This document shows positions 16,310-59,257 of a stretch of 64,000 nucleotides of DNA, piece by piece (positions within the stretch are counted from its first letter, which is position 1; every line of letters starts with the position of its first letter). Both the position numbers and the translations under genes were made by a program. This DNA is from a virus: positions 16,837-80,836 of IMG/VR virus record IMGVR_UViG_3300010885_015247; one strand, written 5' to 3'. Under the pieces are notes generated by a model. The model searched no databases. It worked only from the letters and a program-made list of their open reading frames with translations, and was not told the origin of the DNA.

Positions 16310-16873
16310 TTAGAACGGAGCAGACGGTGCTGCTGGAGCAGGAGCTGGTGCTGCTGCTACTGGTGCGGGAGCAGGAGCTGGTGCTGCTGCAGGAGGTGGA
16401 GATGCTGGTGCTGGTGCTGCTGCCTGAGCAGGAGCTGCAGTATCACCTTGCATTGCTGCAATAGTTGCTGCACTTGGAAAATAGTTACGGATTTCGTTCT
16501 TCTTAGCACCGTTATATAAACGACTACCAATCTGTGCACGGAATCTGCGACCAGTTAGAGTCGCTTCAATCTGTGCGTTAGTTGGGTTTGTATCAAAGTA
16601 ATTACGACCAATACCCATTGCGTGAAACTTTTTAAACAACATACCAAGTGCTGCAGGACTGTCTGGTGTTACAACCAAGTTATCCCATACAAGACGCTTG
16701 TTGTAGGGTCCACCTTCAACCTGTGCCTTTAGCTTGAACATTGTCTTACCAGATTGCGATGTTGTTGCAGTTGCTTCTACTACCACTAGATCAAAATCAC
16801 CATCAGGTAGTGGTTCGTAACTGCCAGTTTCACCAGCATCCTTAATTAAGTCAGACCAATTTTTGGTACTCAC
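16310..16873 (-). CDS. DUF669-family single-stranded DNA-binding protein
   Basis: YEPLPDGDF...SQSGKTMF...GPYNKRLVWDNL; Ala/Pro tail ending in PF. Confidence 0.75.
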   Translation of the reverse strand: MSTKNWSDLIKDAGETGSYEPLPDGDFDLVVVEATATTSQSGKTMFKLKAQVEGGPYNKRLVWDNLVVTPDSPAALGMLFKKFHAMGIGRNYFDTNPTNAQIEATLTGRRFRAQIGSRLYNGAKKNEIRNYFPSAATIAAMQGDTAAPAQAAAPAPASPPPAAAPAPAPAPVAAAPAPAPAAPSAPF

Positions 16874-44100: not shown

Positions 44101-45908
44101 GTCATCTCGACAGGAGCTTCAACAGATGCCTTCAGTGGGTTTCCATTTTTATCTAACCAACGATTCTTAGCACCTTTAGGTTCTATATATCTTTTAGTGT
44201 CTGCTGGATCAAAAAATGGATTTGCTGTTCTAAGACCGTTTCTATCTCCTTCTAAATACTTCTTTAAAACAGGAATGTTGTATGCATTAATTGATTTTTC
44301 TGGAGCACCAGATACCTGAGGATAATATTTAGCAAGAGGGTTTGCACTTCTAGCAGGAGCTGTTTGTGTACCTGCTGGTGTAGTTGTAGTTCCTGCACCT
44401 GTACCTGTTGATTCTGCAGTATCTGCAGATAGTCTTTGATCAGCTACCCATTGAGGGTAGTTTGTAAGCATTGAGTTTAAGCTCGCTGCATTAAGAGGGG
44501 GTAGTGTTCCCGGCATACGAATCGGTGAATCCATAGGAGTACGAGGCTCCCCAAGAATTCCGTTTGTATCTAGCTCTCCTTCAGCAAAACCTTGAGGAAT
44601 CGGTGTGTAAGTATCTAATGGCTCTGTAAGCTTTGCATTAACATCGATCATGTTGCCATTATCAAGTTCTACCTTGACATTGCCTGTTGCATTATCGATA
44701 GAGCGAATGTTTCCTTGATAGTTTGGACGACCACCGATTACTACTCGGCCACCCATCTTTGCAAACTTACCTGTCTTATCACGAAGCTGTGCTCCAGCAT
44801 TAGCTGAGCGCTCTTCGGGAGTGTAGTTTCCATCGTTACTAGTTGGAGTTTCCCCAGCTGCAGTTAATGAGTCATCCATATCCCACATAGATGATGCATC
44901 ATCATACATAATAATGTCATCTAGAAGTTTCCAGTCAATTTCAGGCTGAGCATCAATCATCATCTTGTGCTCTTCTGGTTGAAGCTTGTCAATACGATGA
45001 GCAATAAGAGGTTCGTTGTCTAGAAGAGCAGCAACAAGTAATGCTGTTTCTGTATCAACAGGCATGTGTGTCTTAACAACAACATCTTCAATATCATCAA
45101 GCATCTTGTCATAGCTAGTATGATCGTTATCTGGGTTTCCCATATCATCCCAGTTGCCGTCATCCCATACATACATCAAACCATTTGGCTCAATTCGGTA
45201 TAGACGATCAATACCAGATCCATCCATACGGATGCGAACAAAAAATTCAATTACATTATCTTCAGGCATTGTCTTTGAAGTAATGAAAGAGTCGTAATCA
45301 ACTGCCTTTGGCATCTCGTGCTCGTATGACTCGTAGCCGTATGCAAGCATTGCATTTGATTTTGCTGCTTTATTTTCACGCTCTACAATTGCTGATGCCC
45401 AACGCTCTGCGGCATCTCCACCCCATAAAGCCCAAGCAATACGGCCATTAGATGGGTAATTCTTTTGTCCCGGCTTATAGCCAGTTCCCTTTTTATCTAC
45501 TTGATGACGCGGGAAGTATTTTGCAATATGACGAACCTTGCGAATACCGATTTGTCCACCACGAGCAAGTGTGCGAGCGGTATTCATACCTACTGAAGTG
45601 CCGCCACGGTCTTCCTCTTTGCGCCAAGCAATTCCACGCTTTGCCTCTGCAATAACAGAGTCTGGAATTGTGTACATGCGGTCGTTATTTGAAAATACTT
45701 TGATGTCAAGAGATGTTAAAGCAGCGGCTGCAAGCTCTACTGCTGTATCGGTAGGACGATCTCCCTTAGAGTCCCACTCAAAGGATGCTAGAAGAGGCTC
45801 TTTAATATCTACAGCAGAAACAATGTTCATAGAGTCGTCTACAACAACACCCTTATCTTCTGAGACAAAGAGGGCTCTAGTTCCGTTACGACCAATGAAC
45901 TCCATCAT
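41127..45908 (-). CDS. Multidomain capsid maturation protease/head morphogenesis polyprotein (about 1590 aa)
   Basis: Start re-called at MMEFIG (ATGA overlap). Protease core ESGDGR...LPLLWQ...GHDGSVVVG...GVSADLD; also LRRYWTYGKGAAKIRW, GHIAAW...SGDWR and DGSFPIRNAGDLKNAI modules. Confidence 0.75.
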   Translation of the reverse strand: MMEFIGRNGTRALFVSEDKGVVVDDSMNIVSAVDIKEPLLASFEWDSKGDRPTDTAVELAAAALTSLDIKVFSNNDRMYTIPDSVIAEAKRGIAWRKEEDRGGTSVGMNTARTLARGGQIGIRKVRHIAKYFPRHQVDKKGTGYKPGQKNYPSNGRIAWALWGGDAAERWASAIVERENKAAKSNAMLAYGYESYEHEMPKAVDYDSFITSKTMPEDNVIEFFVRIRMDGSGIDRLYRIEPNGLMYVWDDGNWDDMGNPDNDHTSYDKMLDDIEDVVVKTHMPVDTETALLVAALLDNEPLIAHRIDKLQPEEHKMMIDAQPEIDWKLLDDIIMYDDASSMWDMDDSLTAAGETPTSNDGNYTPEERSANAGAQLRDKTGKFAKMGGRVVIGGRPNYQGNIRSIDNATGNVKVELDNGNMIDVNAKLTEPLDTYTPIPQGFAEGELDTNGILGEPRTPMDSPIRMPGTLPPLNAASLNSMLTNYPQWVADQRLSADTAESTGTGAGTTTTPAGTQTAPARSANPLAKYYPQVSGAPEKSINAYNIPVLKKYLEGDRNGLRTANPFFDPADTKRYIEPKGAKNRWLDKNGNPLKASVEAPVEMTPETSDVPIVHMAIVSPDDPQAVMDLVALVPSTDVSTTPTTFTRKDGKWIAEPQILLDLRSATPPPVVVLDDTNLVDVLEQVDNKKPDKKEEPVTAAGGADRNRGQAEKLRRYWTYGKGAAKIRWKTPGDWTRCYKQLAKYMGPRAKGYCALRHKEMNGYWPGDRKNNNKSDFSVNTMHSYDELLSTFVLRAKAADARSRVLTAGAYETNETAKSQGAEFLIPLVIPEGMESGDGRIMRKGALDMRELPLPLLWQIKTGEGHDGSVVVGQITSMERIDSGIGNAKGHFDTGEYGKEAERLVRGGFIRGVSADLDQFEADDERKDDENGSDTKVDAGKITITKARVMAVTIVPKPAFQECTIQLADAASVEEDEVNIPDGVYVEGVNALEASALVACGMIAGAIPVNPPTEWFNDPQLKGPTPLTVDDDGRVFGHIAAWHVDHIGMTAGTKPPRSRSKYAYFHTGVVRTDNGTDVPVGQLTLAGGHAGLEASASEAVRHYDDTASAIADVHAGEDAYGIWVAGSVRPGSTPEQIRALRASAPSGDWRPIKNSLELVAVCQVNVPGFPIARARVASGQVMALVAAGASTLAMLKHDPLAELNARLSDLEGDKKMALVASANDVRARFETNRMEVLAAKRVELAAKIKKVKEDVDQDIDYMIQNFDENPETELTVISRRVRERLAQEGKALNDGSFPIRNAGDLKNAIQAYGRAKPGSRGKVKRHIIKRAIGLGKEEMIPENWKGAASNLDEIVASMKSRTEEYGTRLGSDFATNSEAVFAEKITEEIIDLTPEEVEALKAESKAREEGRVTDGEAPPERDADGRVKYTADTQPRDVAGKFRTVLARIKQDLGTSGLQNVLDKVKEAENFDSTGDYAGAAKAATDLIGIIDRLDSGALNAESLENVRNSAGELGKVIANLPFAFGEEAQKIRFSDVPPALRDLMTDMIEKVEAKIGKEDADIATAELKTFISGSELYNQSEISSQMAKLLRLLT

Positions 45909-46627
45909 GCTTTTCCTGACTCCTCGGTTACGGGTCCGCCAGCTACCCATGCATCGCATGTACGAGATGATGCACATTTAAAGTCGAATGCTTCACAATA
46001 CCCTAGATCGCCAGCCTCGATTGAGCCCCAAGCGTCATTTCCAGCCTCGTTTCCAAGTCCAGAAGCAATACAGTCAAGCATTTTTGGTGTTTGAATGAAT
46101 ACAGCGCAGTTGCCACAGCGTGATTTCTTAGCATCTTCAACTGGAACAGTCCAGCGATCTGCTTTTGCTTGCCAAAAAGTGTTATTTGGAAGTGCTGGAT
46201 TCATTGGTCCGTAACCAGCAGTTTTGATAGCACCTTCTCTATTTTTTAGATTTACAGCAATGTCTGAAGTAGCAGGAGGACATCCTTCAGATGTCTCGAC
46301 TGCAGCCGTCATAGACTTGCCGCTCTCCTCAAATGCATAAAAAACTTCGTAATCTTTTACCTGATCATATTTAACATAAGTTTTAGCCTTCTGAGCTGTA
46401 TCAAACATATCCGTAACTACTTTGTAGTCGGAAGGAAGAATGTCCATAATTGAAAGGTTCTCAAGGCTTGTATCTTCTGGAGACAAGGCAAGCCATTGGC
46501 CATTTACTCTTGTAAAGGTGCCAAACTTTTCTGTAGAAAATATAGCCTGATAAACAACATTCTCACCGTTTGCATAGATTAAAGACATGCCTTCAAGTGG
46601 ATAGGACTTAGCGCTAGACAGTCTCAT
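45905..46627 (-). CDS. Head-module protein with Cys-rich C-terminal domain
   Basis: CPPAT...RCGNC...YCEAFDFKCASSRTCDAW. Confidence 0.65.
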   Translation of the reverse strand: MRLSSAKSYPLEGMSLIYANGENVVYQAIFSTEKFGTFTRVNGQWLALSPEDTSLENLSIMDILPSDYKVVTDMFDTAQKAKTYVKYDQVKDYEVFYAFEESGKSMTAAVETSEGCPPATSDIAVNLKNREGAIKTAGYGPMNPALPNNTFWQAKADRWTVPVEDAKKSRCGNCAVFIQTPKMLDCIASGLGNEAGNDAWGSIEAGDLGYCEAFDFKCASSRTCDAWVAGGPVTEESGKA

Positions 46628-46749
46628 AGCTTTTCCTCATCCTCAGGCTCGTATGAGTCAGCATTAGGGTCAACCTCTGCTAGCTCAATAATCTTGCGGT
46701 AAGCAGCAACAACAGCCTCGTTGTATTGCTCTTTATCTGACTTAGCCAT
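46624..46749 (-). CDS. 41-aa acidic small protein (MAKSDKEQYNEAVVAAYRKIIELAEVDPNADSYEPEDEEKL), absent from the ORF track
   Basis: ATG at 46749; its TGA overlaps the next ATG (ATGA); fills the gap. Confidence 0.6.
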   Translation of the reverse strand: MAKSDKEQYNEAVVAAYRKIIELAEVDPNADSYEPEDEEKL

Positions 46750-46854
46750 TATTATACCGTCTTCTCTTCAATGGCTTCTGGATTGGCCACAAGACCTTTT
46801 TCGTTTAAAAGAGGCATTGCATCTTTTGTCTCGGTTACTTTACCTATTTCAAGT

Positions 46855-49800
46855 TCAGGGATTGATAACACCTGTGTCTCCTTCGTCTAGTTTTCCAATA
46901 GCCATTTCAAGAATATTGGCTTGCTTTGTAAAACCCTCTGATCTTAGCAGTGCTACCCAAGTTGCGTACCACACTGAATTATGTCCACCGTCTCCGTTCG
47001 GGTTCTTCCAGTTAGCTTCCATCAGATGTGCAATCTCGTGAAGCAAAGCAACCTTGGTAGTTCCTCTACTTCTTACTAAAACAACAGGAAGATCTTTATC
47101 TTTAAATGGGTGAGAATCTGGCAAGCTTTCTGTAGTACCACGGGAAACTGCTGCCTCTACATCATTATGTTCTGGGTTCTCCGCAAAGAACTTGTCAGAG
47201 TTAGCCATACTAAGATTAAATACTCTATCCCCGTATCCATACTTAACTAGCATATCTGTAATATATTTTCCAACTTCAGCTTCATCAGAAATCACTTCTT
47301 GATCTTCCATAATGCGCTTGAACATAACACCAGAACCACCCTCGATGCGCCAGTCACTCTTGCGCTCTGGGTCGTATGTGACATCGTTCCATACGGTATG
47401 CATCTTTGATCCATACTTAATTTTTTCTGCTGTTACATTTGGATCAATGTTCTTTGGAGTCTTAGCTGTAGCAGCGAGTTCTTCTCCCGTTGTTCCCTCT
47501 TCGCCAACGTTAGCTTCTGGAGCTGTCTCTGGCTTTAATCCTGCATCTTCTGCGATCTGATCACCAGTCTTACCTTCGCTACCAACACCTTCGCCAACAG
47601 GCTCTACAGGATTTCCTTCTTCATCAACTTTTGCTGGCTCTTCTTGCTTGCCTAACATATGGTCTACAGCCTTCTGTGCTTGCTTGGCTGCCTTGATAAT
47701 CATCTGTGGATCGTTCTTAAGAGCTCCAAGCCATGACTTTGCATATGATGCAACATTACCGAAGTCAATCTCAACGCCTAGACGTGCTGCAACAAGTGCA
47801 ACAGAAATCTCTGCAATAAGTTCTTCCTCACCACGGCTAGCCTTGTGAGTTCCGTAGTTGTCTGTGAGATCTTTACGATTTACACGAGATGTATGTCCCG
47901 TGCTGTGTGCAAGCTCGTGAACTATAGTTTCAAAGATATCTTGCTCTGCACCGAACTGCTCACGGAGTGGCAAATGAATAGTGTCAGTTACTGGTGAGTA
48001 GTAAGCGCTGTCTTGAGACTTGTAGAAAATCTCTGGACGATCTTTATATGTATCAAGAAGAGTCTGCTCTCCTTGGCTTACTGGAACTGGTTCGCCTTTA
48101 ACTAGTGGTGGAAGGTTAATGCCTTCTGCTTGCTCTACGTTAAAGACGTTAATAATCTTTGGCGGTGTGTATACAAATACTTTTTCTGTGGTTCCATCTG
48201 GCTGCTTGACATCTTTAAACTTTGGAGTCCAGTGGATAATTGAAGTTGCCTTCTCGCCACGCTTAATGTTTCCACCAAGCTTTTCTGCTTGCTTATATGT
48301 AAGCCAGCGATTATCAGACCAACCATTACGCTCCTGAGCTGCCCAAAGTACGAGGACGTTTGTTCCTTCATACATTTTGCCAGTTGCAATACTAGTTGGG
48401 AGGAATCCTCCACCAGTCCAAGGCTTACGCCAAGGAGCAGTTCCATTTTCAAGAGCTTCAATAATTGCATCTGCAATTTTCTGTGTTGCTGGGTCAATCT
48501 TTTTTGCAGTTTCCTGTACTTCATTATCAAACTCTTCTGGTGTAACAGGAACTGGGTCTGTTTCAATCTTAGACATTGCTTGTAGAGTAAAAGATGGAGC
48601 AATAGCTTGCTCGTCTTCTTCAGATGTGTAGTCGTTAACCCAGCTGAGAGGTCCTAGATAAACTTCTTTCTGTGCACGAGTAATTGCAACATATGCAAGT
48701 CGAAGTTCTTCTGGTGCTGGCATATCAATCTCGCCAGTTTCCTTGTTAAACTTTGGACCCCAGAAGTCATCGTAGATTCGAACCTTGTTCCATTGCAAAC
48801 CCTTTGACTGATGTGCAGTAGTAATAACAACATCTGCCTTTACTGGCTCGATTACTCCTTCAAGAATTTTCTTAAGTTGATTGAGCTTATCTACTTTCTT
48901 AAGATCATCTTCAATAGTTATACGACGATCTTTTGCCCAGTTGCCGTCAGCATCTTTTCTTGCCTTAAACCCTGCTTCTTTAAGTTTTTCATTGTTATAT
49001 TTAAAGAATCCAGTAAGAACAACATCATCACCTTCAATAGTGTATGTGACACTACTATCTAGCTTTCCAGTAGAACCGTCCTCTACCTTGTCTAGAGTAA
49101 GAGGCTTGTAGTTCTTAAGAGCAATCTTGCTCTCTGCAGTTTCTTCACGCTCTACAACAACACGATCTAAAATCTCACGGATGCTTTGCATCCCATTCTG
49201 TGTTACCAAGTCGTAGAAAGCCTTAACTGGACGAGCTTTTCCTTCTCGGACTGCAGTTGAAAGTTCTTCCCAAGAGTCATACATTCCAATTTCTGCGTTG
49301 TACTTAGCTGGCTTCGAGCCTTTCTTTCCGCCCATAAGCCAACTTGTTGTATCAATAACTTCTTCAAGTCTTGTTTTAGTTGATTGACTAATTCCAACAA
49401 TCTTGCCTTGCTCAAGATACTCAAGCATTGCCTTAAATCCGCCACCATTTGTGCGAACAAGAACTGCATCTGGGTCTGGCATTTCATCTAAGCTCTCTAC
49501 AACTTTACCTTGATCTTTTCCAGCACCGATAACTTTCTCTGGCTTTCCAGCAACAGCAAGGAAACGGTTAGCAGGTGCTGCAATGTTTGGACCAAATCGG
49601 AATGATTCGTTGATTTGAAGCTTCTCTGCTCCTTCAAGAGTATCTAGTTGATCTTTAGCTCCACGGAATCCATAAATAGACTGATTTCCATCGCCAACAA
49701 ATACTTTTTGTACATTCTGCTTACGGACCCAATCGCCAGCAACATCATTAATATCCTGCGCTTCATCGAAGAAGATAATGTCTGCTGCAGGAATTACTTT

Positions 49801-52800
49801 GTCTGGGCTAGTAGACTCTGAGTCTGGTGACATTGTTACATCAATGCCATTAAGTTGAACATACTTTTCTGGGAAAGATTGATTCATCGACAAGCGACCC
49901 TTAGGACTTGAAATATCATCCCACCAGCGATTTGCGTAGTCGATAAATACTTCAGGAATGTCTACAAAATTATCTGTAAAGTGTTGAGGCATAATCTTCT
50001 CGTCTGCACTCTGTGCAAATGCTGTTACTGCTTGACGAACAACAGCAACTACTTCTCTGCTTGATAGATTTGCTTCTACCTTTGTTCCATCTTTTTTGAT
50101 CTCTACAACTTTAACTGGTCCTATTTCAAGATGATCTGCAACTTCTGTTGGAAGTCCAATAGATGTTTTATCAAAACTACGCTTTTGCATCCAAGTAGGT
50201 GAATGGTGCCAAGCAACCTGTGTATTGGTTCTTGCAATCATATTTGAAGGTTTGTCAGGATCAGCATTAAGTTCTGCAGCTACAGCCTTGTTAAATGCAA
50301 TATAAAGAATAGTTTTGTCTGGATCTTTTTCTGCAACGGCCTTTGCAGCCATCTTAAGTGTGCTGGTTTTACCTGTTCCAGCAAGAGCCTGAACAATTAC
50401 ATCCTTACCAGCAACTACAGCATCAATAACTGCTTGCTGTTGTTTAGTTGGCTTGATGCCCTTAGGTTCTGCATCTTCGCTATCTGAAACAAAATCTGGG
50501 TCTGGAGTTTCATCAGGGCTTCCAGTTGCATCTTCTGGGAACTCTTGATCAAGCGAGATCATTCCCATCTTTTGAAGATTAGGTTTCTCTCCTAAAGGAA
50601 GAGTGAACTCGTCTTGCTTTTCAATAGCCGTATATAGATCTGGAGATCTAACACTAAAGTTCCAATTTGGTGCAGCTGGATTATCAAAGTAAAGAATTTT
50701 TCCATCTGACTTAATAATTGCCTCGGTATTGTTAGGACCGATCATAACGATAATGTCGTCTGCTTCCATATCTTCACGGCGCTCAAGATCTTTTTTACTT
50801 GGCTTTACAAATGTAAACTTTCTTTCTAGAGGTGCACCAGTAGAGAGATTTGGCATAAATCCTGTAACAGATCTTTGATGACCCTTATCGTACTGAGATA
50901 TATCTTGAACTGCGGCTGTAAGTGCTTCTAATGCTTCTGGACTTACTTGACGATAATTAAGGTCCAGTGCGTATTTCATTCTTTTTTCTTCGTTTTCTTT
51001 CCAAACTCTGCTTCGCTCTTCAGCATCCATAACTACAGGCTCTTCTGGGACTTCAACCGCAGGAGTGTTATCTGTAACGTCTCCAGTAAGAAGTGAAGTA
51101 AGTTCTTCTGTAGACTTTGGAGTCTCGTTAGGGTTTACTGGCTCTCCAGTTGCAGGAGGAGTTGGATCTGTAAAGAACCCGCCGCCATCATCTGGATTAA
51201 TAATTTGTAGTGAACCTGCCGAGATGTTTTCACGCTTCTCGGCATCATCAAACTTTACCTTGACATAATTTTTGTATCCGCGAGGACCGTATGTTGTAAG
51301 GAGTGCTCTAACTTCACCCATACGTCCGTGCTTAGTACCACGAACTCTGTCGCCAACCTTGAGAGCAACACCATCTGCTGAAAGATGATTGATAGATGCA
51401 TCTGGGCGATCTGCAAGAACTACAGACTTAACAGTGTCATCTAGTGGAAGACCCTTGACTGCTTCCTCAACAGTTGCGTCTGATTTAGCACCAGATGTAA
51501 TTGTTTCGATTGCATCGGAGACAACACTCTGAGTCTCTTCTGGAGTAATTGACTTCTTACCCTTAGGTGTAGGAGTCTTATCCTTTGTCTTAGGTTCTGG
51601 AGCAACTACTACTGGCTTAGATGCTAAAGCTTTAACTTCTGCAGGTGTCTTACCAGCAAGTTCATTACGACGACGAAGTGTTCCCTTAAGAACCTTGCCG
51701 TTAGACCAGCCAATTCCAGGTGATTTCTTCTCTGTAACTCGTGTGCTATAAAGCTCACCGCTTGAAACAATCTTGCGAACAACAATAGTTCCGTTTGGAT
51801 CTTCTGGGTCTGCAATCAGATCAACCACTTCGTGGTATCCGCCACCCTCGGCTGGTACGAAGTCACCAATCTTAATATCTCCTACAGTTGCTGCACCTTC
51901 GTCAACAACAAAAGTGTTTTCATCATCTTCGATCCAAGTGTCATTAATCTTTCCACCAAAGATTGATTCATATGCGTACTCTTCAGCAGAATCTGTGCTT
52001 CCTTCAGGACCAAAAGTAGATGTTGTCTTGGTCTTACCAAGCATCTCGTCAACTGATACTTGCTCTCCAGACATACCACGCTTGACTGCTTCAGCCATAG
52101 CTAGTTCTGCTTCTTGCTTCTTAAATGCTTCTAGCTTCTCGTTGTATGAAGAACGCTTAGCCTCAAACTCTGCAAGACGAGTTGCAGCATCAAACTCTCT
52201 ATTGTCAGGCTTCATATCGCCAAGCAAACCTTCTAGGATTGCTGGAAGAACCTCTGAATCAGTTCTGGCATCATGCCACTCTTCATCTGTCTTCTCAATA
52301 CCGTAGCGCTTAGCAACTTGACCAAGCTTGTTACCCTTAGGAGTCATGCTTTTTGCTAATTCAAGAGTATCAATAACTCCATCCATGTTGTAATCAATAC
52401 CAAACTTCTTAGCCCACTTCTCAAATGTATTTGTATCAAACTCAGCGTTGTGTGCAACAAAGATTGCATCTTGTCCAGCAAACTCTGCAAATGCACGAAG
52501 CTGATCTTCAATAGATGGCTGAGTTGCTAAGAACGCATCGTCAACTGTTTGACCATCAAAGCTGAGTAGCTTCTCTGGATCAAGAACTTTATTTCCATCT
52601 GCATCTGTCTTGTAGTAGTAGTCTCCAAGAGGCTCTCCTGGATTGATGAACAGGTTGATTTCTCCAACCTTCTCTCCACCTTCCCAGACAGATGCTGCAA
52701 CCTGAATAGGTGCATCAGGATTATCGTTATCAAACTTTCCAGTTCCTACTGTTTCAAAATCAAAGTAGACAACTCGCTTGCCCTTAAGAGCATCTGAGAT

Positions 52801-55800
52801 TGCTTTTCCATCTTTAAGGTTTGCAAGTTCTGCAGCTTTACCAAAGAACGCTGGACGATTTCCACGATTATAGCTATTAGGCTTTTCTACAAGTACTGCA
52901 GGGATTTCTGATGCTGTTAGATCAGGAGTGTATGCCTTTCCAGCTTCTTTTCTTAATGCTGCAATTTCCGCGTTCTTATCTTTATAAGCCTGACCCTTAA
53001 GAGTTCCTGGCTCAATACTATCAATTGCTGGCTTGTCACCCTTAGCAGGAATCTTCTCTGCCTTTTCTCCACGAAGAACTTCTACAGATGTACCAGTCTT
53101 CCAAGACTTAACTTGTGATTCGTGTCCTGGATAGTATCCACGGATTTGAACCTTCTCTTCTGCTGGCTTTCCATCTGCACGAGGGACCATAACTGTGCCT
53201 GGTAGAACTTCTTCGATAACAAAGAACTCACTGAGTTCGCCATTCTCGTCACGACGGAATGCAATATCATTTGGCTTCAAATCTCTACCAAGTGCGTTAA
53301 CAACGTGAAGAGTATTCTCGGGTGTAAATTCTTTTACAGTAGGTTCAACTTCTGGAGCATTCCACAAAGCCTTCTGTGTAGATAGTTGCTCTTGGTACTT
53401 TTCCATATCTTGTTCAAATTGCTTTTGCTCAGCTGGGTCTTTTAGTTCCCAGTCGCCATTGACCTTTGTAAGCTTTCCGTAGTCGCCCATCTTTGGCTGA
53501 TTAAGTTCTGGTAAATCTCCCTTTGCAGGAGGAGTTACATCACGATATACATCAAAGAGAACATCGTCTGCCCAAAGTTTGCTTGACTGCTCTACTCCGC
53601 CAGGATAATAACCACTTACACGAGAAGCTGGGACCATTTCCCCGTTTCGCTTCTTTTCAAATCCTTCTTCTACATTTGTAACTGTAAAGAAATCTTTAGT
53701 CATAACATCGCCAGGTTTAAGATCTGTTGTCTTAGCTGTCGCAATGCGTGGGTTTGTTACTACTACAGCATCTTCAATATCTGATTCGTTAGTTGCGCTT
53801 GAGGTTTGTTCTGATTCAGTAGTAGTTGGATCTTCCTTGACTTCTGGTGAATCTGGAACTACCTCGGCATCAACAATATCTGCTTCTGGTTTAGTTTGAT
53901 CGGAAGGAGTCCCTTCAGACTCGACAGTAACATCGCCGGGCTTTGATGGGCCCTTCTTGCTACGGAAGAAGTTCCAACCAAGTTCTTCGTTAAGTCTTCT
54001 ACCAATCTCTTCTAATTCTTCAGTAGTTAAACTATCTAAAATATCTGTGAATGCTTTAATTGTTGAACGATCAGGGTTCTCTAGTTCAAGAGCGCCAGGA
54101 CCAAACTCTGTGAAGATCATCTTGAGGATAAGTTCCTTGCGACGCTTTGCTTCTTTCTTTAGCTCCCTCTTGCTCTTTTTAGAAGTAGGATCTTCTTTAG
54201 TGTCTTGATCTTCAGGCTCTTCGTCTTTTTCTTTTTTAGCTCTAGAAATGTCGTTATCTGATGTAAGAGCATCTGTAGGCACTTCGTTGACAATCTGATC
54301 GATCTTCTCATTCATTTCATCACGCATCTCAACGAGTGCGTCAAATTCTTCTGGTGTTAAGCCGTTTGCTTCTGCATTTTTAATTGCCTCGTTTGCAATC
54401 TTGCGATCTTCAACAAGTTGTTTAAGAGTTTCTTTTGCATACTCCTGAGAGGCAGGGTTTTCTGGATCAAAGGTTGCTTCTTTTATCTTTACCTTTGGCT
54501 CTTTAACATCTTCAGTAGGTGTGGTATCTGCAGGAGTTCCTTCAGGGAACTCTGGAGCTGGCTTACCCTTAAGATTTTTTTCGTAGTAATCAAATGCTTC
54601 TTGAGGAGAGTTAAACTCCACTGTTTGATCTAGACCATCGCCAATAAGGAACCAATACTTAGCTCCTGGCTGGTCAACAAGATCGAGAATAGTTCCATCT
54701 TCATTCTTAGCAAGAGTTGCAGACTCTGGATCCTTTGACCAACCTTCTGGCAAAGTATCTGGAAGTGCATCAGCAATGTCTGTCTTATCTTTTGAAACCT
54801 CTGGGCCAGCAACATCTTTAGTCTCTGGTGCTACTTCTTCGCCCTCTGGTGTTTTAGGGGCTGTACGAGTCTCTACAGACTCATCTTTAGAATCAAGATC
54901 AATTGGTGGCTGTCCTTCTCTTGGAAGAAGGTCGATACCAAACTTATCTCTTAGCTCACGAAGGAACTTCTTAGCACTTGCCTCATCCATGCCAGACTTT
55001 GTTTCAGCCTTAGCATCTGGGTTCCAATCAAAGCCATTGTCATCTAAGAAGTCTTTAACTTCTTGCATTCTAAATGGAGCCTTCTTACCAGAGCGAAGAT
55101 CTAGACGATCTCCTGTGAGTTTGTAAGAAACTTGAGGAGCAATCGCGTCTTCCTCTGCTTTTTTGTTGTCTTTTTCAATTTGCTTATCTAGCTTTGCAAT
55201 TTCTTTTGCAAGAGTTGCACGAACAGAGTCGATTGCTTTATTTTCAATAACATCTGTCTCGTCTAGATCCTCTTTAGCAAGACCAAGTTGGTCATCGGCT
55301 GCTTTAAGGATATTTCTAACATTCTCGTTTGAGCGCTCACCTGTTTGCCAGTCTTTAAAGCCACCACGAATTGACATTGTTGGATCTTGTAGAAGATCAA
55401 GTGCGTATTGAACACGACCTGAAGGTCCTGGCTCGAAACCATACTCTCCCATATCAATTGCAGATACTTCATCTCCAGACTCAAAGCCTTCCATTTCTTT
55501 ATCTTGATAATCAGATAAGAGAGGGCTGTTAAATGTAGGATCGTTAAAGAAAGCTGCAAGTCTTGTGAAATCTTTATTTTTAGTAAGCATTTCATGGAAA
55601 CGCTCGTCTTTACTTACACTAGTAAGCCATTCGTCAGCTGTCCATCCTTCTTTAATAGGATCTTTACCTGACTTGGAACCTTTGCCATCAGCTGGCACTT
55701 CTGATGTAGGAGTATCTGCTACAGGCTCTTCTTCTTCTGTTTCTGGCTGTTCTGGAAGATCATCTGGATCAATAATGTCTTGAGTTTCCTTATAAGAATT

Positions 55801-58287
55801 AATAACATCTTCAGCAATTTGACGAGCTTCTGCTTTATTCTTTGCAGGATAGTTTTCTTCGGCATCTATTCCACGATCAGGAGAGAGTCTAACTGCATCT
55901 GCTGACCAATTTCCGTCTTCGTCTTTTCCATATGAAACAATAGTATTGTTATCTATGTCGTATTCCATACGACCTGTTTCTTTATTCTTTTTAAACTTTA
56001 TTGGATCCTTTTCTTCTACAGGATCATATGCACCATTTAATACTGCTCCGTTGACCTCATCCATATTGTAGTCACGCAACTTGATTGCATCACGAAGGAC
56101 TTCACTCGGAATCTGAACAGTCTGTACTTCATTATTCTCGTCTTCAATACCAAAAGGTGCAGATCCGTTTTCGTCAAAAAGATTTTTAACAGCGCCGTTA
56201 TATGATTCAATTAAATCATCATCTGATAGTTCTGAGTTAGCGAGCTCTAGTGCTTGCTTACGCTCGTCTTCACTAAGAATTCTATCTTGAGGAGGTGTAG
56301 AGCCTTCTGGCCACTCGACAGGTCCATCCTTTGGAAGATACGGGGTGTAGTCACCGTTCTTTTGAAAATCTGCTTTTTCTTCTTCTGTAAGTCCATCAAG
56401 AAGTGCTGGAAGTTTAGATGGTTCTGCATCTTCAGTGATTTCTGGGAGCTCTGCAACAGGAGTTTTCTCTTCTGCAGGTGCTTCTGGCTCTGGAGCTTTT
56501 GTTACTTCATCAAATACTTCGCCAAGCTTCTTTGGCTTACCAATCTTTCCTTCTTTATCTGCTTCACGTTGTGCAGCAAGTGCATCTTCGTTTTCGTTTG
56601 TTCCAAGACGCTTATCGTAGGCTTGAGCAAGTGCAAGTTCTGCATCTCCGCCTTTTTCATCAATTGCTTTAAGGATTGCTTCTGCTGGAACTTCTTGTTC
56701 TCCACCAGTAGGTTCTCCATCTGAATCTGTTCCATCTGGGAATGTTAAACGGCCAAGACCAGTATCGAGTGCATCATCAAGACCTTCAACAAGTTCATCA
56801 CCTTGGAACATATTTGCAAGAGATGCAGGGTCGTCATACTCGGAGACTGATCGGTATGGCGCAGTTGGGTTTGTAATCTCGTATGTATCTTCTGGAACCT
56901 TGTATTTAAACTCTGGTGATGCTCCTGCAGGTGCTTCTGGCTCTGAAAGACGTGCAATCTCTTCTTTCTTAAATTTATCTTGCTGATCTACAAGTGGAGT
57001 TTCGTCCTCTGGAGTGTTGTCATCTTGTGTGATTCGTGCAAGAGGTGTACGACCCTCTTCTTCATCAAGGAATCTTTGATCTGCTTGAATTCTCTGCTGT
57101 GCATCGTTCCAATTCTGTGTATATGCAAAAGGAGTTCCGCCACGACGTGAAACTGCATAGATTGGTTTCTCTGGATCCCAGAACTGCTTACCTGAATCTG
57201 GATCTGTCTCGCCTTGCTTATCAACTGCAGCGTCATCTAAATCACGCTCTGCTCTAAGTTTGTTTGTTTCAGTAAGATCTGCAAGAGCACGCTTATTGTC
57301 GTCAAACTTAACTACATCATAAGCTTGGTCTGTGTACTTAGTTGTTCCCTGCTTGCTTCCTCTCTCATCTTTTTCAAATGAGCTAGGGCTTTCCATAAAT
57401 GTAAGATCTGCTTCATCAATAATTGGATCATCCATATCATCTGCTGATGAGCCAGCAGGTGTGAAGCCATCTTTCTTTGCTGCAGGACTTGGAAGAAAGT
57501 TACTTCCTCTTGCCTGACGGATTGGCATTGCAACGATGCGTCCATCTTCTAATTCAACATCTGCAAGTTGTGGACTAAAGATGTTCTGACCAACTGCACG
57601 ACCTGAAAGCGACTGTGTACTTCCATCACGACGTTTTACCTTGATACCAAGGCCACCAAACATCTCGACCCAGCGGCCGATACGATCACGAAGCTGGAGA
57701 GCAACACGAGCACGCTTTGCAGCAGCAGAGTTTCCTCCGCCATATGCTGCAGTCATCGCCTCTAATGGAACATGACCTTGTGGAAGGTTCTCAAGACGTG
57801 TAATTGCATAAAGTTTTTCTGGAGAGTTAGCTGGAGCAAGCATTGCAGATGCAATAAGTGCTTTAGCATCTTCATTTGTAATGCGTGGATCATCTGTAAC
57901 CCATTGAACGTGTGTGCGAATCATCGCTGAAGCCGTCATAGAGTGTGCACGGGTTGAACGTGGGTGTGTGAGAGGAAGAAGATCGGTATTAAATGCTGTT
58001 AAGCCAACTACCTTGTTGTGTTTTGCGAGTGCGATGTAGTTTGAGAGCTCTGTGAGCGCTTGATGCTTTCGAACCGAAAATGGCAAGCCTTCAGAAGAAT
58101 GTAAAGACCTAGAGATGACACGAAAAGCTGAGCGACGATTAACTCTACGGGTGTTAGTTGTAAATTCATTAGCTGCCTCAATCATTTGTAGTGCTTCACT
58201 TCGAATAATGCGTGCCTGTTGACGAGTACTGAAGGTAGTCTCGCTTTGAGAAAGAACGTGAAGCTGTCTCTTATCTTTCTTAGACAT
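46855..58287 (-). CDS. 3810-aa polyvalent protein: SH3/KOW-like repeats, DEDDh exonuclease, SF1 (UvrD-like) helicase, ArdC-N + MPTase, second zincin
   Basis: YFDFET/AHNAEFD/WHDARTD; ALAGTGKTS/FDEAQD/VGDGNQSIYGFRGA/TAHQSKGLQW/YVAITRA; PWRKPW...RWLTYKQA...VFNVEQ...HELAHSTGH...EELIAE; LLHEIAH. Confidence 0.9.
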   Translation of the reverse strand: MSKKDKRQLHVLSQSETTFSTRQQARIIRSEALQMIEAANEFTTNTRRVNRRSAFRVISRSLHSSEGLPFSVRKHQALTELSNYIALAKHNKVVGLTAFNTDLLPLTHPRSTRAHSMTASAMIRTHVQWVTDDPRITNEDAKALIASAMLAPANSPEKLYAITRLENLPQGHVPLEAMTAAYGGGNSAAAKRARVALQLRDRIGRWVEMFGGLGIKVKRRDGSTQSLSGRAVGQNIFSPQLADVELEDGRIVAMPIRQARGSNFLPSPAAKKDGFTPAGSSADDMDDPIIDEADLTFMESPSSFEKDERGSKQGTTKYTDQAYDVVKFDDNKRALADLTETNKLRAERDLDDAAVDKQGETDPDSGKQFWDPEKPIYAVSRRGGTPFAYTQNWNDAQQRIQADQRFLDEEEGRTPLARITQDDNTPEDETPLVDQQDKFKKEEIARLSEPEAPAGASPEFKYKVPEDTYEITNPTAPYRSVSEYDDPASLANMFQGDELVEGLDDALDTGLGRLTFPDGTDSDGEPTGGEQEVPAEAILKAIDEKGGDAELALAQAYDKRLGTNENEDALAAQREADKEGKIGKPKKLGEVFDEVTKAPEPEAPAEEKTPVAELPEITEDAEPSKLPALLDGLTEEEKADFQKNGDYTPYLPKDGPVEWPEGSTPPQDRILSEDERKQALELANSELSDDDLIESYNGAVKNLFDENGSAPFGIEDENNEVQTVQIPSEVLRDAIKLRDYNMDEVNGAVLNGAYDPVEEKDPIKFKKNKETGRMEYDIDNNTIVSYGKDEDGNWSADAVRLSPDRGIDAEENYPAKNKAEARQIAEDVINSYKETQDIIDPDDLPEQPETEEEEPVADTPTSEVPADGKGSKSGKDPIKEGWTADEWLTSVSKDERFHEMLTKNKDFTRLAAFFNDPTFNSPLLSDYQDKEMEGFESGDEVSAIDMGEYGFEPGPSGRVQYALDLLQDPTMSIRGGFKDWQTGERSNENVRNILKAADDQLGLAKEDLDETDVIENKAIDSVRATLAKEIAKLDKQIEKDNKKAEEDAIAPQVSYKLTGDRLDLRSGKKAPFRMQEVKDFLDDNGFDWNPDAKAETKSGMDEASAKKFLRELRDKFGIDLLPREGQPPIDLDSKDESVETRTAPKTPEGEEVAPETKDVAGPEVSKDKTDIADALPDTLPEGWSKDPESATLAKNEDGTILDLVDQPGAKYWFLIGDGLDQTVEFNSPQEAFDYYEKNLKGKPAPEFPEGTPADTTPTEDVKEPKVKIKEATFDPENPASQEYAKETLKQLVEDRKIANEAIKNAEANGLTPEEFDALVEMRDEMNEKIDQIVNEVPTDALTSDNDISRAKKEKDEEPEDQDTKEDPTSKKSKRELKKEAKRRKELILKMIFTEFGPGALELENPDRSTIKAFTDILDSLTTEELEEIGRRLNEELGWNFFRSKKGPSKPGDVTVESEGTPSDQTKPEADIVDAEVVPDSPEVKEDPTTTESEQTSSATNESDIEDAVVVTNPRIATAKTTDLKPGDVMTKDFFTVTNVEEGFEKKRNGEMVPASRVSGYYPGGVEQSSKLWADDVLFDVYRDVTPPAKGDLPELNQPKMGDYGKLTKVNGDWELKDPAEQKQFEQDMEKYQEQLSTQKALWNAPEVEPTVKEFTPENTLHVVNALGRDLKPNDIAFRRDENGELSEFFVIEEVLPGTVMVPRADGKPAEEKVQIRGYYPGHESQVKSWKTGTSVEVLRGEKAEKIPAKGDKPAIDSIEPGTLKGQAYKDKNAEIAALRKEAGKAYTPDLTASEIPAVLVEKPNSYNRGNRPAFFGKAAELANLKDGKAISDALKGKRVVYFDFETVGTGKFDNDNPDAPIQVAASVWEGGEKVGEINLFINPGEPLGDYYYKTDADGNKVLDPEKLLSFDGQTVDDAFLATQPSIEDQLRAFAEFAGQDAIFVAHNAEFDTNTFEKWAKKFGIDYNMDGVIDTLELAKSMTPKGNKLGQVAKRYGIEKTDEEWHDARTDSEVLPAILEGLLGDMKPDNREFDAATRLAEFEAKRSSYNEKLEAFKKQEAELAMAEAVKRGMSGEQVSVDEMLGKTKTTSTFGPEGSTDSAEEYAYESIFGGKINDTWIEDDENTFVVDEGAATVGDIKIGDFVPAEGGGYHEVVDLIADPEDPNGTIVVRKIVSSGELYSTRVTEKKSPGIGWSNGKVLKGTLRRRNELAGKTPAEVKALASKPVVVAPEPKTKDKTPTPKGKKSITPEETQSVVSDAIETITSGAKSDATVEEAVKGLPLDDTVKSVVLADRPDASINHLSADGVALKVGDRVRGTKHGRMGEVRALLTTYGPRGYKNYVKVKFDDAEKRENISAGSLQIINPDDGGGFFTDPTPPATGEPVNPNETPKSTEELTSLLTGDVTDNTPAVEVPEEPVVMDAEERSRVWKENEEKRMKYALDLNYRQVSPEALEALTAAVQDISQYDKGHQRSVTGFMPNLSTGAPLERKFTFVKPSKKDLERREDMEADDIIVMIGPNNTEAIIKSDGKILYFDNPAAPNWNFSVRSPDLYTAIEKQDEFTLPLGEKPNLQKMGMISLDQEFPEDATGSPDETPDPDFVSDSEDAEPKGIKPTKQQQAVIDAVVAGKDVIVQALAGTGKTSTLKMAAKAVAEKDPDKTILYIAFNKAVAAELNADPDKPSNMIARTNTQVAWHHSPTWMQKRSFDKTSIGLPTEVADHLEIGPVKVVEIKKDGTKVEANLSSREVVAVVRQAVTAFAQSADEKIMPQHFTDNFVDIPEVFIDYANRWWDDISSPKGRLSMNQSFPEKYVQLNGIDVTMSPDSESTSPDKVIPAADIIFFDEAQDINDVAGDWVRKQNVQKVFVGDGNQSIYGFRGAKDQLDTLEGAEKLQINESFRFGPNIAAPANRFLAVAGKPEKVIGAGKDQGKVVESLDEMPDPDAVLVRTNGGGFKAMLEYLEQGKIVGISQSTKTRLEEVIDTTSWLMGGKKGSKPAKYNAEIGMYDSWEELSTAVREGKARPVKAFYDLVTQNGMQSIREILDRVVVEREETAESKIALKNYKPLTLDKVEDGSTGKLDSSVTYTIEGDDVVLTGFFKYNNEKLKEAGFKARKDADGNWAKDRRITIEDDLKKVDKLNQLKKILEGVIEPVKADVVITTAHQSKGLQWNKVRIYDDFWGPKFNKETGEIDMPAPEELRLAYVAITRAQKEVYLGPLSWVNDYTSEEDEQAIAPSFTLQAMSKIETDPVPVTPEEFDNEVQETAKKIDPATQKIADAIIEALENGTAPWRKPWTGGGFLPTSIATGKMYEGTNVLVLWAAQERNGWSDNRWLTYKQAEKLGGNIKRGEKATSIIHWTPKFKDVKQPDGTTEKVFVYTPPKIINVFNVEQAEGINLPPLVKGEPVPVSQGEQTLLDTYKDRPEIFYKSQDSAYYSPVTDTIHLPLREQFGAEQDIFETIVHELAHSTGHTSRVNRKDLTDNYGTHKASRGEEELIAEISVALVAARLGVEIDFGNVASYAKSWLGALKNDPQMIIKAAKQAQKAVDHMLGKQEEPAKVDEEGNPVEPVGEGVGSEGKTGDQIAEDAGLKPETAPEANVGEEGTTGEELAATAKTPKNIDPNVTAEKIKYGSKMHTVWNDVTYDPERKSDWRIEGGSGVMFKRIMEDQEVISDEAEVGKYITDMLVKYGYGDRVFNLSMANSDKFFAENPEHNDVEAAVSRGTTESLPDSHPFKDKDLPVVLVRSRGTTKVALLHEIAHLMEANWKNPNGDGGHNSVWYATWVALLRSEGFTKQANILEMAIGKLDEGDTGVINP

Positions 58288-59257
58288 TGTCTTCTCCCTC
58301 TTTAGGCAGTAGATCTGAATCTAAGCTTTCATAACCTAGTGAAGCAAAGTTAGATGCTCTTTTAAAAGGATTTTCGTTGTTACGAACTCCACGAAGCCAA
58401 GATGCACGAACTGCATGCTCTGCTTCATAACCAAACCCAGAGAACTCGGCTAAAGAAAGAATAGCGTGCTCTGGAGAGTCGTAGTCTTCTTCATTTCTAA
58501 GTTCTACAGTAAGCTCTTGTTCGAAACGATAGTTCTCTGCAAGCTCTTGAAGCTCTTCTACTGTTTGAACTTCTCTTCCGAGTTTTTCGCCTTCGAGAAT
58601 TCCGACATCAACGACCCCATCTGGGATAACCGCGAAACGACACTTCCCCTCGTCCTCGACTTCGGTTTCGATGATTCTGCACGAGCCATTACCCATGTAT
58701 AGAACACATGAAGAGCACTTGACTCCGATTCCCTTGTATTCATTTTTTTCTGCGGGGGTGTATCCTGCCCAGATTCCTGTTGCATCTTCATTAAACTTTC
58801 CGTACTTATCGGCAATTTCAATAAGTGCTTCTGCTAGGTCCGCTTCTTCTGGGACTAACCCAGCTGAAGCAGTGATTGAGTTGCTTTTCTTTGTTGAACG
58901 AGGGTGCTTTGCTGGAAGTAAGTCATTGTCTGACTTGTATGCTGAGTTTGCTGGCTTCCCAGACTTCAACATCTTAAGAAAAGCATTAACACGAGCCATG
59001 GCCCAACCATTGCGAGTCATTCCTGGCCGATGTGATACCGAGTATGCACCAGCACCACGGCGATAAACTGCTTTAAGCATTCCTAGAGTTGCACGACGGC
59101 CTTCTCTTGCTTTTTCGTTGTGAGTTGTTACTTTTTCTTGCAGAGATTTCTCTACTGCTTTAGAAAAAACTACTTTACGAGATCCTGATGCAGATCCTTT
59201 AGAGTTTTTCTTAGAACCTTTAATTTGATCTTTCTTAGGAGCCTTAGCGTCAGACAT
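58280..59257 (-). CDS. Head-module protein: DUF5824-like domain plus 4-Cys domain
   Basis: Start re-called at MSDAKAP. LKAVYRRGAGAY..SHRP...WAMARVNAFL; KCSSCVLY...C...GKCRF. Confidence 0.65.
   Translation of the reverse strand: MSDAKAPKKDQIKGSKKNSKGSASGSRKVVFSKAVEKSLQEKVTTHNEKAREGRRATLGMLKAVYRRGAGAYSVSHRPGMTRNGWAMARVNAFLKMLKSGKPANSAYKSDNDLLPAKHPRSTKKSNSITASAGLVPEEADLAEALIEIADKYGKFNEDATGIWAGYTPAEKNEYKGIGVKCSSCVLYMGNGSCRIIETEVEDEGKCRFAVIPDGVVDVGILEGEKLGREVQTVEELQELAENYRFEQELTVELRNEEDYDSPEHAILSLAEFSGFGYEAEHAVRASWLRGVRNNENPFKRASNFASLGYESLDSDLLPKEGEDNV

Follow-up and report, generated by a model that had tools for sequence, protein, structure and literature searches.

Why should a phage carry, among the genes for its head, one protein of 3810 residues with exonuclease, helicase and ArdC domains? 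The question is raised by a stretch of 64,000 nucleotides (nt) of IMG/VR record IMGVR_UViG_3300010885_015247 (positions 16,837 to 80,836; hereafter the window). The record is an 80.8-kb fragment, 62% complete, from an uncultured lake phage of actinobacteria. The protein, called the giant below, very probably belongs to the phage-type polyvalent proteins. A preliminary description of this DNA had made the same assignment, which is sustained by the multiple domains of the giant, its MPTase and ArdC-N hub domains and its setting among virion genes. The giant is also probably packaged in the capsid, as suggested by its place in the head operon, its N-terminal leader, the putative protease sites of that leader, its avoidance of cysteine and the existence of relatives fused to Peptidase_S78. 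The full chain of events, in which the giant would be loaded, trimmed, ejected and active in the host, is given somewhat better than even chances.

Domains of the giant protein

The giant open reading frame (ORF) and its parts lie in the window as follows.

46855..58287, minus strand: giant ORF, ATG start, 3810 codons, 0 internal stops, stop codon at 46855-46857
57922..58194, minus strand: leader module, a DUF5824-like helical domain, residues 32-122, with residues 89-183 of the 375-aa protein upstream as its paralogue
57928..57939, minus strand: candidate protease site 1, residues 117-120, M-T-A-S (putative cleavage)
57745..57756, minus strand: candidate protease site 2, residues 178-181, M-T-A-A, ahead of a low-confidence stretch (putative cleavage)
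57655..57738, minus strand: basic box, residues 184-211, with Q-x-R-D-x-x-G-[KR]-[FW], directly after site 2
56038..57744, minus strand: N2, residues 182-750, conserved; a beta domain at ~205-330, then mixed alpha/beta units
53788..56037, minus strand: variable acidic, Pro- and Lys-rich region, residues 751-1500, recognised by composition and by low identity and occupancy
53008..53775, minus strand: tandem ~90-aa beta-rich domains, residues 1505-1760 (internal repeat, E 2e-7)
52246..52770, minus strand: DnaQ-like DEDDh 3'-5' exonuclease, residues 1840-2014 (Pfam RNase_T, 3e-16)
51178..52020, minus strand: conserved region, residues 2090-2370, present in 18 of 120 leader proteins
48655..50445, minus strand: UvrD/Rep-like superfamily 1 (SF1) helicase, residues 2615-3211 (Pfam UvrD-helicase, AAA_19, UvrD_C)
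48202..48489, minus strand: ArdC-N domain, binding single-stranded DNA (ssDNA), residues 3267-3362 (Pfam ArdcN PF08401, 1.2e-29; PDB 6i89)
47680..48021, minus strand: ArdC-type zincin MPTase, residues 3423-3536, H-E-L-A-H at 3457 (Pfam PF18818 MPTase-PolyVal, 5.2e-29)
46858..47427, minus strand: probable C-terminal minimal zincin, residues 3621-3810, H-E-I-A-H at 3750 (model and conservation)

As the preliminary description had stated, the giant is encoded by a single ORF, and its domains are joined by acidic or Pro-rich linkers, of which a composition scan finds 12. The domain coordinates given there agree with the Pfam positions to ~30 nt. The product has a mass of 421 kDa and an isoelectric point of 4.68. 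All four Pfam families concerned (RNase_T, UvrD-type helicase, ArdcN and MPTase-PolyVal) exceed their curated cut-offs, and catalytic residues were compared in an alignment of 14 family members that are 32-87% identical to the giant.

The three enzymatic modules that had been read from the sequence, a DEDDh exonuclease, an SF1 helicase with clear motifs and an ArdC-N domain followed by an H-E-L-A-H MPTase, are all borne out by matches in Pfam, PHROGs and the PDB. The exonuclease domain matches phrog_192, a polymerase exonuclease subunit (1e-19), and in a PDB sequence search it aligns to the PolC, DinG and epsilon exonucleases. Its residues D1843, E1845, D1951, H2005 and D2010 are invariant in the alignment and supply the D-x-E of Exo I, the D of Exo II and the H-x4-D of Exo III. 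The helicase domain has Pfam E-values of 2.5e-12 and 2.7e-11, matches phrog_1967, DNA helicase (4e-73), and finds FBH1 (1e-17) and also UvrD in the PDB. Named as is customary for UvrD/Rep SF1 helicases, its motifs comprise a Walker A, a DExx box, G-D-x-x-Q-x-I-Y-x-F-x-G-A and the motif VI arginine. Of these, G2637, G2639, K2640 and T2641 of the Walker A, D2841-E-A-Q-D2845, G2865-D...Q2869 and R3204 are invariant.

The ArdC region matches the anti-restriction proteins of PHROGs (7e-69), and residues 3268-3544 align nearly full-length to positions 10-284/297 of ArdC (6i89/6sna; E 1.4e-44, PDB sequence search). The layout is that of ArdC, an ArdC-N domain followed by an HExxH metalloprotease domain, of which H3457, E3458 and H3461 are invariant. 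Outside these modules, the two copies of the tandem beta-rich domain (residues 1505-1600 and 1655-1760) usually precede and co-occur with the exonuclease in the family. An Atlas search with residues 2091-2370, which cover most of the conserved region, gave no usable match.

A second zincin, likewise claimed in the preliminary description, holds up as a probable one. HExxH motifs occur at only two places in the giant, 3457 and 3750, and at the latter H-E-I-A-H (nt 47026-47040) and a downstream G-G-H are invariant in 9/9 aligned C-terminal domains (190 residues). Structures were modelled with AlphaFold2 (AF2) for residues 1-760 and for the C-terminal domain. The model of the latter, with a predicted local distance difference test score (pLDDT) of 80.7 and a predicted template modelling score (pTM) of 0.83, is matched best by jannalysin (4jix, Z 6.2), abylysin (4jiu, 5.8) and selecase (4qhf, 5.6), followed by the SprT domain of Spartan (6mdx, 5.1) and Wss1 (5xbn, 4.8). 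Nearly all of the 50 aligner rows are zincins. Because Z values of this size count as modest on the scale of the tool itself, the domain is called probably a minimal zincin, outside any named family. Foldseek found no match to the model in the PDB at E<=0.001, and when the C-terminal alignment was used as a profile against the PDB, only chance-level rows came back (best E 0.19; single-sequence search, E 0.73). Pfam SprT-like was weakly matched by one of the nine members (E 0.14), and Atlas scores for the domain were 0.84-0.85, with one cluster in which 11% of members carry SprT-like. The spacing from histidine to histidine is presumably like that of Spartan.

This C-terminal domain is confined to a part of the family. 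It occurs in 10 loci of a clade of 36-49% identity and is absent in the closest relatives (L004, L005, L006 and L008). The giant of L005, ~90% identical elsewhere, ends in an unrelated tail that still holds an HExxH motif, and for L004, L005 and L008 a Pfam scan of the C-terminal tails was empty. As judged from these comparisons, the C-terminal zincin is a swappable cassette.

The domain content fits the polyvalent proteins, described as carrying 2-15 functionally distinct domains per polypeptide (Iyer 2017, J Bacteriol, PMC5512222). The giant holds the exonuclease, the helicase, ArdC-N, the MPTase, the second zincin and at least three further conserved regions. Both hub domains are present (PF18818, 5e-29; PF08401, 1e-29), and the giant is adjoined by portal-type packaging and virion genes. 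Like the class as described, it therefore combines many effectors with MPTase and ArdC-N hubs and virion-gene neighbours, and delivery with the DNA has been predicted for the class (Iyer 2017, PMC5512222). The giant differs from the members described in the available text of that paper in three respects. The phage anchors named there are MuF, portal or N4-RNAP, whereas the giant has a DUF5824-like leader and N2; UvrD-like helicases are described only in a few actinomycete plasmid proteins, whereas the giant is from a phage; and the giant adds a DnaQ-like exonuclease, while in the main text 'DnaQ' is absent and 'exonuclease' occurs once (Iyer 2017, PMC5512222). A MuF-type anchor was considered for the giant as well and rejected, as no MuF family is among its 15 Pfam hits at E<=0.1.

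The leader and its setting in the head operon

The neighbours of the giant gene that bear on its role are the following.

59250..61013, minus strand: portal protein (phrog_776, 5e-111)
58280..59407, minus strand: 375-aa DUF5824 protein (Pfam DUF5824, 3.5e-8), overlapping the start of the giant by 8 nt
46624..46749, minus strand: 41-codon ORF that takes up most of the space from the giant to the 240-aa gene and whose stop overlaps the next ATG (ATGA)
45905..46627, minus strand: 240-aa head-module protein, no family hit
41127..45977, minus strand: 1616-aa prohead-protease polyprotein (phrog_859, phrog_18402)
38870..40963, minus strand: major capsid protein, 697 aa (phrog_777)

On the minus strand the order is thus portal, DUF5824 gene, giant, 41-codon ORF, 240-aa gene, protease polyprotein and capsid, followed by tail genes. 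The preliminary description had placed the giant between the portal and the maturation protease. That order is correct, but the two do not flank it directly, since the DUF5824 gene, the 41-aa ORF and the 240-aa gene intervene. A consensus scan found no strong promoter (10/12 positions) or terminator (9-pair stem) flanking the giant on the minus strand. The only 10/12 promoter matches between 44 and 63.9 kb lie on the opposite strand at 63.07 and 63.49 kb, and no terminator hairpin is stronger than one of 9 pairs at 63.42-63.45 kb; the consensus hits close to or within the giant gene are weaker and perhaps due to chance. Because the giant overlaps the upstream gene by 8 nt and lacks strong flanking signals, its gene is most simply seen as part of the head operon, and late expression would be expected for it.

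The leader is related to the protein encoded just upstream. Residues 32-122 align with the DUF5824 region of that neighbour over 91 columns (hhalign probability 96.1%, E 2.9e-9), and the two proteins match in a pairwise BLASTP search (E 2e-5); Pfam DUF5824 (PF19141) itself gives no hit on the giant at E<=0.1. Both paralogues end in D-L-L-P-x-x-H-P-x-S-T, with [MI]-T-A-S-A a few residues on. The AF2 model of residues 1-760 has a pLDDT of 75 and a pTM of 0.34. It contains a helical domain at ~20-182 (pLDDT 86-93) and a stretch under 50 at 184-197. Beyond 197 it continues with the beta domain and the mixed alpha/beta units of N2. The only rows for this model in BFVD were weak (XkdF-like at 5e-3, and ChaB and 'prohead protease' over ~100 residues) and serve as leads only.

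The conserved small-residue sites of the leader are candidate prohead-protease sites. Site 1 appears as T-A-S/A in 11 of the 14 aligned relatives, as S-A-S in two, Site 2 has the form [LMI]-x-A-A in 14/14 aligned relatives, and A180 is kept in 139/151 leaders. The major capsid protein carries P-V-T-A-[AS] at residues 269-273, and V/M-T-A-[AS] occurs in 14/14 of its homologues, including those of phages DSL-LC01 and Big4. This capsid motif lies near the start of the HK97-type similarity to other actinophage capsids, for many of which the tblastn alignments begin at query positions 252-306. The leader sites may be of the same kind as this motif at the delta/body junction of the capsid protein. 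In total, [LMVI]-T-A-[AS] occurs 11 times in the 7325 aa of six head-module proteins, with at least one copy in each, and once in the 11051 aa of 28 other ORFs (Poisson P ~1.5e-10), an enrichment that is post hoc, the motif having been derived from these very proteins. In the protease polyprotein, eight matches to [LMVI][TV]A[ASG] were counted, compared with 1.2 expected from shuffles.

The basic box that follows site 2 is the most conserved stretch of the leader. Among 151 sequences, Q198 is kept in 146, R200 in 144, D201 in 143, G204 in 145 and F/W206 in 146. In window ORFs of at least 150 aa, Q-x-[RS]-D-x-x-[GE]-[KRQ]-[FW] occurs in three places only, once in the giant and twice in the protease polyprotein, at residues ~397 (shortly after S-L-T-A-A-G) and ~1455. 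The same arrangement of boxes in giant and protease polyprotein is found in DSL-LC01, Big4, L005, L009, L017 and L024. The pairwise match of the box between the two proteins is not significant alone (E 1.5), and the claim of a shared box is made because it recurs across loci. In Peptidase_S78/HK97-type systems the prohead protease must be inside the procapsid. The sharing of the box with a procapsid-internal protease therefore makes it a reasonable candidate for a loading contact. A complex prediction for the capsid protein with residues 175-260 of the giant gave no verdict (score 0.00) and speaks neither for nor against binding. In the head slots of L035, L036, L046 and Big4, the giants have no leader and begin almost at once with the box, at residues 17-30. 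They look like what the 3810-aa giant may become once its leader is trimmed.

Cysteine is strikingly avoided. The giant has none in 3810 residues, while the other 33 window ORFs have 88 in 14566 (0.60%), and the binomial probability of zero in the giant is ~9e-11. Cysteine is also missing from 41 of 51 relatives. Among 113 leader proteins of at least 1500 aa, 62 have no cysteine and 109 have two or fewer, for an overall content of 0.026%. Cellular relatives of the enzyme domains normally contain cysteine. No cysteine is found in the capsid protein, the tape measure or two large tail proteins of this phage either. This avoidance is consistent with life in an extracellular particle and with unfolding for passage through a narrow channel. 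The 240-aa (7 Cys) and 375-aa (4 Cys) neighbours are Cys-rich next to the Cys-free giant, and the DSL-LC01 counterpart of the 240-aa protein bears the GenBank label 'high potential iron-sulfur protein'.

Relatives, conserved position and exchanged cargo

A search of 5.8 billion proteins yielded 51 clusters of relatives, 2095-6668 aa long. RNase_T, UvrD-type helicase, ArdcN and MPTase occur together in 38 of them (31-93% identity), and cluster P0002 is 93% identical over 99% of the giant. The preliminary description had not recognised this combination in a head operon. The databases show otherwise, as the 38 clusters share the set and the JGI pipeline already labels clusters as 'antirestriction protein ArdC/DNA polymerase III epsilon subunit-like'. 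In the literature no paper describing the giant family was found, although the supplements of Iyer (2017) may list members. A megablast search of the giant ORF against 50,697 phage records gave no match. The nearest named relative of the phage, as judged by 74% capsid identity, is Actinomycetia phage DSL-LC01, also from a lake, and the available text of the paper on it does not discuss the gene in the giant slot. More distant relatives found by tblastn are phages of Microbacterium, Arthrobacter, Gordonia and Mycobacterium.

Within IMG/VR, relatives are encoded in 336 stretches, of which the best 80 were used; as these loci were recruited by helicase patterns, they are biased towards helicase-bearing giants. 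In 19 of the 80 (L004-L021 and L024), which come from different samples, every module stands in the same order as in the giant. Of 30 leader-bearing loci, 28 have a portal gene upstream and two begin at the giant itself. Sequencing runs tell the same story. All 20 runs that hold part of the giant gene are labelled freshwater, lake water or metagenome, and contigs from four runs of four studies cover 30, 30, 29 and 28 of 30 bins (45800-59600). A chimeric assembly, which the preliminary description had named as a ground for refutation, is therefore very unlikely. The only structural differences in these contigs are replaced segments in the variable acidic region, in run X7, where 53800-54517 and 54837-54961 are swapped for other sequence between like flanks (446 letters for 716 skipped, and 126 for 123). 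The acidic linkers of the giant are a hot spot of strain variation; residues ~1040-1150 form one conserved island inside the variable region. Another of the runs, X1, may be the source sample.

The leader is far more widespread than the enzymes behind it. Residues 1-260 were searched against 1.84 billion cluster representatives, giving 293 clusters at E<=1e-3, of which 210 also pass <=1e-10 and 80 pass <=1e-30. For the 150 matches listed the leader is always N-terminal, and these proteins have a median length of 2627 aa and a maximum of 7004 aa. Among the 120 listed proteins of at least 1500 aa, N2 is present in 116, the exonuclease in 57, the tandem beta domains in 51, the helicase in 26, ArdC in 14 and the C-terminal zincin in two; 55 share nothing with the giant beyond N2. 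On these counts, the leader and N2 are regarded as the constant part and the enzymes as cargo.

The occupants of the head slot in named phages agree with this division. In DSL-LC01 the slot protein (3289 aa, annotated 'hypothetical protein') shares only its first ~350 residues (31%, E 3e-30) and one stretch of ~140 residues with the giant. In Microbacterium phage Big4 it has 1756 aa and shares only residues 175-233 (tblastn). Neither has a Pfam enzyme domain, and in Gordonia phage GMA2 no giant is found in the slot.

A survey of the same locus for domain swapping had been proposed, and swapping is indeed seen, with giants differing in cargo, order and C-terminal cassette. In the loci retrieved, slot giants measure between 2562 and 6562 aa. 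ArdC is lacking in L025, L027-L030 and L032-L034. The order is helicase-ArdC-exonuclease in L037, L039 and L040 and helicase-exonuclease-ArdC in L031, while ArdC precedes the helicase in L041, L045, L051, L053, L055 and L083. Two consecutive giants, of ~3240-3360 aa and at least 3888 aa, are encoded in L037 (5214-27525), L039 and L040; the second giant starts with the box at residue 35 and has an RNase_T domain.

Pfam was used to survey the cargo of 17 of the 150 listed leader proteins and of eight slot giants or parts of them. The 17 (P0059-P0188) were 12 of the 55 without shared cargo and five of 32 with the exonuclease only, and they yielded RNase_T in five, PI3_PI4_kinase in four, and GNAT and NUDIX in one each. 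The giant of L032 (6829-26472) holds WYL, KTSC and four ADPrib_exo_Tox stretches, that of L035 (4439-13186) holds ADPrib_exo_Tox, and that of L031 combines Sigma70_r4, KTSC and RNase_T with ArdC-N/MPTase and a UvrD-like helicase. The head-slot giants P0037 and P0041 likewise carry ADP-ribosyltransferase domains. The giants of L031 (4268-18475, 4736 aa) and L053 (6704-21115, 4804 aa) open with Peptidase_S78 at 35 and 43 bits, respectively, against a cut-off of 21; these are 2/2 of the leaderless giants of the ArdC lineage that were scanned. By these matches, the ArdC/helicase cargo of L031 and L053 is physically tied to an enzyme predicted to work in the prohead.

Proposed delivery, rival explanations and meaning

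The proposed life of the giant can be put together from these parts. It would be made together with the head proteins and carried into the procapsid by its leader, box and N2, along with the portal, the protease polyprotein and the capsid protein. There the prohead protease would trim the leader at the T-A|[AS] sites. On infection, the 400-kDa acidic train of enzymes would leave unfolded through the tail, with the DNA or just ahead of it, and act on nucleic acid and on host restriction proteins during the first minutes. The ArdC unit may counter type I-like restriction in the way known from plasmids. Helicase and exonuclease may together strip or degrade bound nucleic acid or proteins, acting on DNA ends, bound proteins or hybrids. 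The zincins may split the train into active parts or else cut host proteins, and release of modules by MPTases has been proposed for polyvalent proteins (Iyer 2017, PMC5512222).

Several known systems resemble parts of this scheme. In the plasmid ArdC of R388/pSa (6i89, 6sna), as in the giant, a conserved ArdC-N domain is joined to an HExxH zincin; the plasmid protein is, however, a free protein of ~300 aa, while the ArdC of the giant is one module, close to the C-terminus of a phage protein of 3810 aa. P1 DarB is said to be a methyltransferase joined to an SF2-type helicase and to be loaded through DarA and Hdf. Compared by description only, the giant lacks the methyltransferase, has an SF1 UvrD-like helicase and bears another leader. 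The likeness is that DarB, within the Dar system of DarB, DarA and Hdf, is a large helicase-containing anti-restriction protein, thought to be borne in the head, that protects incoming DNA (PMC12810830, PMC9024508), as is proposed for the giant.

Phages of the T4, SPN3US and phiKZ type process their proteins at L/I-x-E or S/A/G-x-E. The candidate site of the giant is instead [LMVI]-T-A-[AS], and its leader is a folded domain of ~160 aa, not a short peptide. What the two would have in common is an N-terminal targeting part that is removed by a protease and a cargo that is ejected, as described for the T4 internal proteins (IPs) and Alt and for the ejection proteins of SPN3US and phiKZ (PMC9026906, PMC7411985, PMC10052503). 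The virion RNA polymerase of N4 (3500 aa) is similar in size, is packaged and ejected, and has an MPTase-type zincin (Iyer 2017, PMC5512222). The giant has no RNA polymerase module, comes from another type of phage and shows no homology to the N4 protein outside the zincin class.

A number of points weigh against packaging and ejection. The giant is strongly acidic, while the T4 IPs and similar DNA-associated internal proteins are basic. For the leader and N2 no match to a solved head protein was obtained: a Foldseek search of the PDB with the 1-760 model gave none at E<=0.001. Site 1 may be inaccessible because it lies inside a confidently modelled segment, and the enrichment of the motif has the post hoc character noted above. 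The additional copies in the giant at 1790 and 2456 are not conserved; a domain-by-domain release, in which the prohead protease splits the giant at domain junctions, is therefore not supported and was rejected. No RNA runs holding a stretch of the giant gene were listed, which is silent on expression, and the host of the lake phage is uncultured. ArdC-N is described as rare in phage-type polyvalent proteins in the available text of Iyer (2017, PMC5512222). R388 ArdC, needed in the recipient to pass an hsdRMS system, acts at conjugative ssDNA entry (Gonzalez-Montes et al. 2020, PMC7213743), and a role for ArdC in a double-stranded DNA phage is for that reason an extrapolation.

The giant might instead be loaded for assembly or genome handling, with the helicase and exonuclease processing or organising the packaged DNA, or as a core or scaffold part, in which case ArdC would serve to bind DNA. 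The context evidence for loading supports such a role equally, the leader and N2 are far more conserved than the cargo (116/120 compared with 14/120 for ArdC), and the slot giants of DSL-LC01 and Big4 do without a Pfam enzyme domain. However, the cargo turns over fast and includes conflict domains (ADP-ribosyltransferase, GNAT, NUDIX, kinase-like, sigma region 4 and ArdC), and the C-terminal zincin cassette differs even among relatives of ~90% identity. An arms race therefore fits better than a structural role, which is considered unlikely. It is just as improbable that the giant is a late cytoplasmic enzyme, encoded in the head operon and left out of the particle, that serves in host DNA degradation, recombination and repair, or exclusion of superinfecting phages and plasmids. 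In favour of this, replication and repair ordinarily employ an exonuclease, a UvrD-like helicase and an ssDNA binder, and packaging is itself deduced from indirect signs. Yet a cytoplasmic enzyme would hardly require the portal-to-protease position kept in 28/30 loci, a leader and box common to proteins that must be in the prohead, or relatives fused to Peptidase_S78, and the near absence of cysteine across the family would have no evident reason.

The remaining alternative, an assembly chimera or a decayed read-through pseudogene, would be prompted by the great length of an ORF found on a 62% complete metagenome contig. It is very unlikely because near full-length relatives come from independent assemblies (P0002 and the 38 clusters with the same set), 19 loci from different samples keep the same order and contigs of four studies cover nearly all bins; the catalytic residues are, moreover, invariant. 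Packaging followed by ejection is thus the best explanation at hand. Further support for injected cargo comes from slot giants with ADP-ribosyltransferase domains, given the precedent of T4 Alt, a packaged and injected ADP-ribosyltransferase (Iyer 2017, PMC5512222). The ADP-ribosyltransferases of freshwater actinophages have been interpreted as 'Trojan horse' toxins aimed at grazers (Kavagutti 2019, PMC6802176). The location of such domains inside head-cargo giants suggests instead, by analogy with Alt, injected enzymes of host takeover.

A wider reading is held more tentatively. The leader, the [LMVI]-T-A-[AS] sites and the box could together be a portable capsid-loading signal, with which hundreds of lake-phage lineages would fire Cys-free trains of enzymes into the host. 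The cargo would then comprise ArdC, helicase, exonuclease, ADP-ribosyltransferase, kinase-like, GNAT, NUDIX and sigma region 4 domains, and the signal would do for actinophages what the T4 capsid targeting sequence or encapsulin cargo peptides do elsewhere.

Overall, the giant belongs in all likelihood to a known class, and differs from the members described in the available text of Iyer (2017) by its non-MuF anchor, its UvrD-like helicase and its added exonuclease. It also shows that ArdC, known from conjugative plasmids, has repeatedly been taken up by phages, here joined to a helicase-exonuclease pair. Taken alone, the giant is of moderate interest; should its leader turn out to be a loading signal of general use, the interest would be higher. 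In that event, some of the most abundant freshwater phages would possess a large undescribed delivery system. About 9% of a ~130-kb genome would be given to one injected multi-enzyme protein, and the family would form a natural catalogue of counter-defence cargo, about half of it without a recognisable domain. The leader would also provide a means of bringing foreign proteins into the capsids of actinophages.

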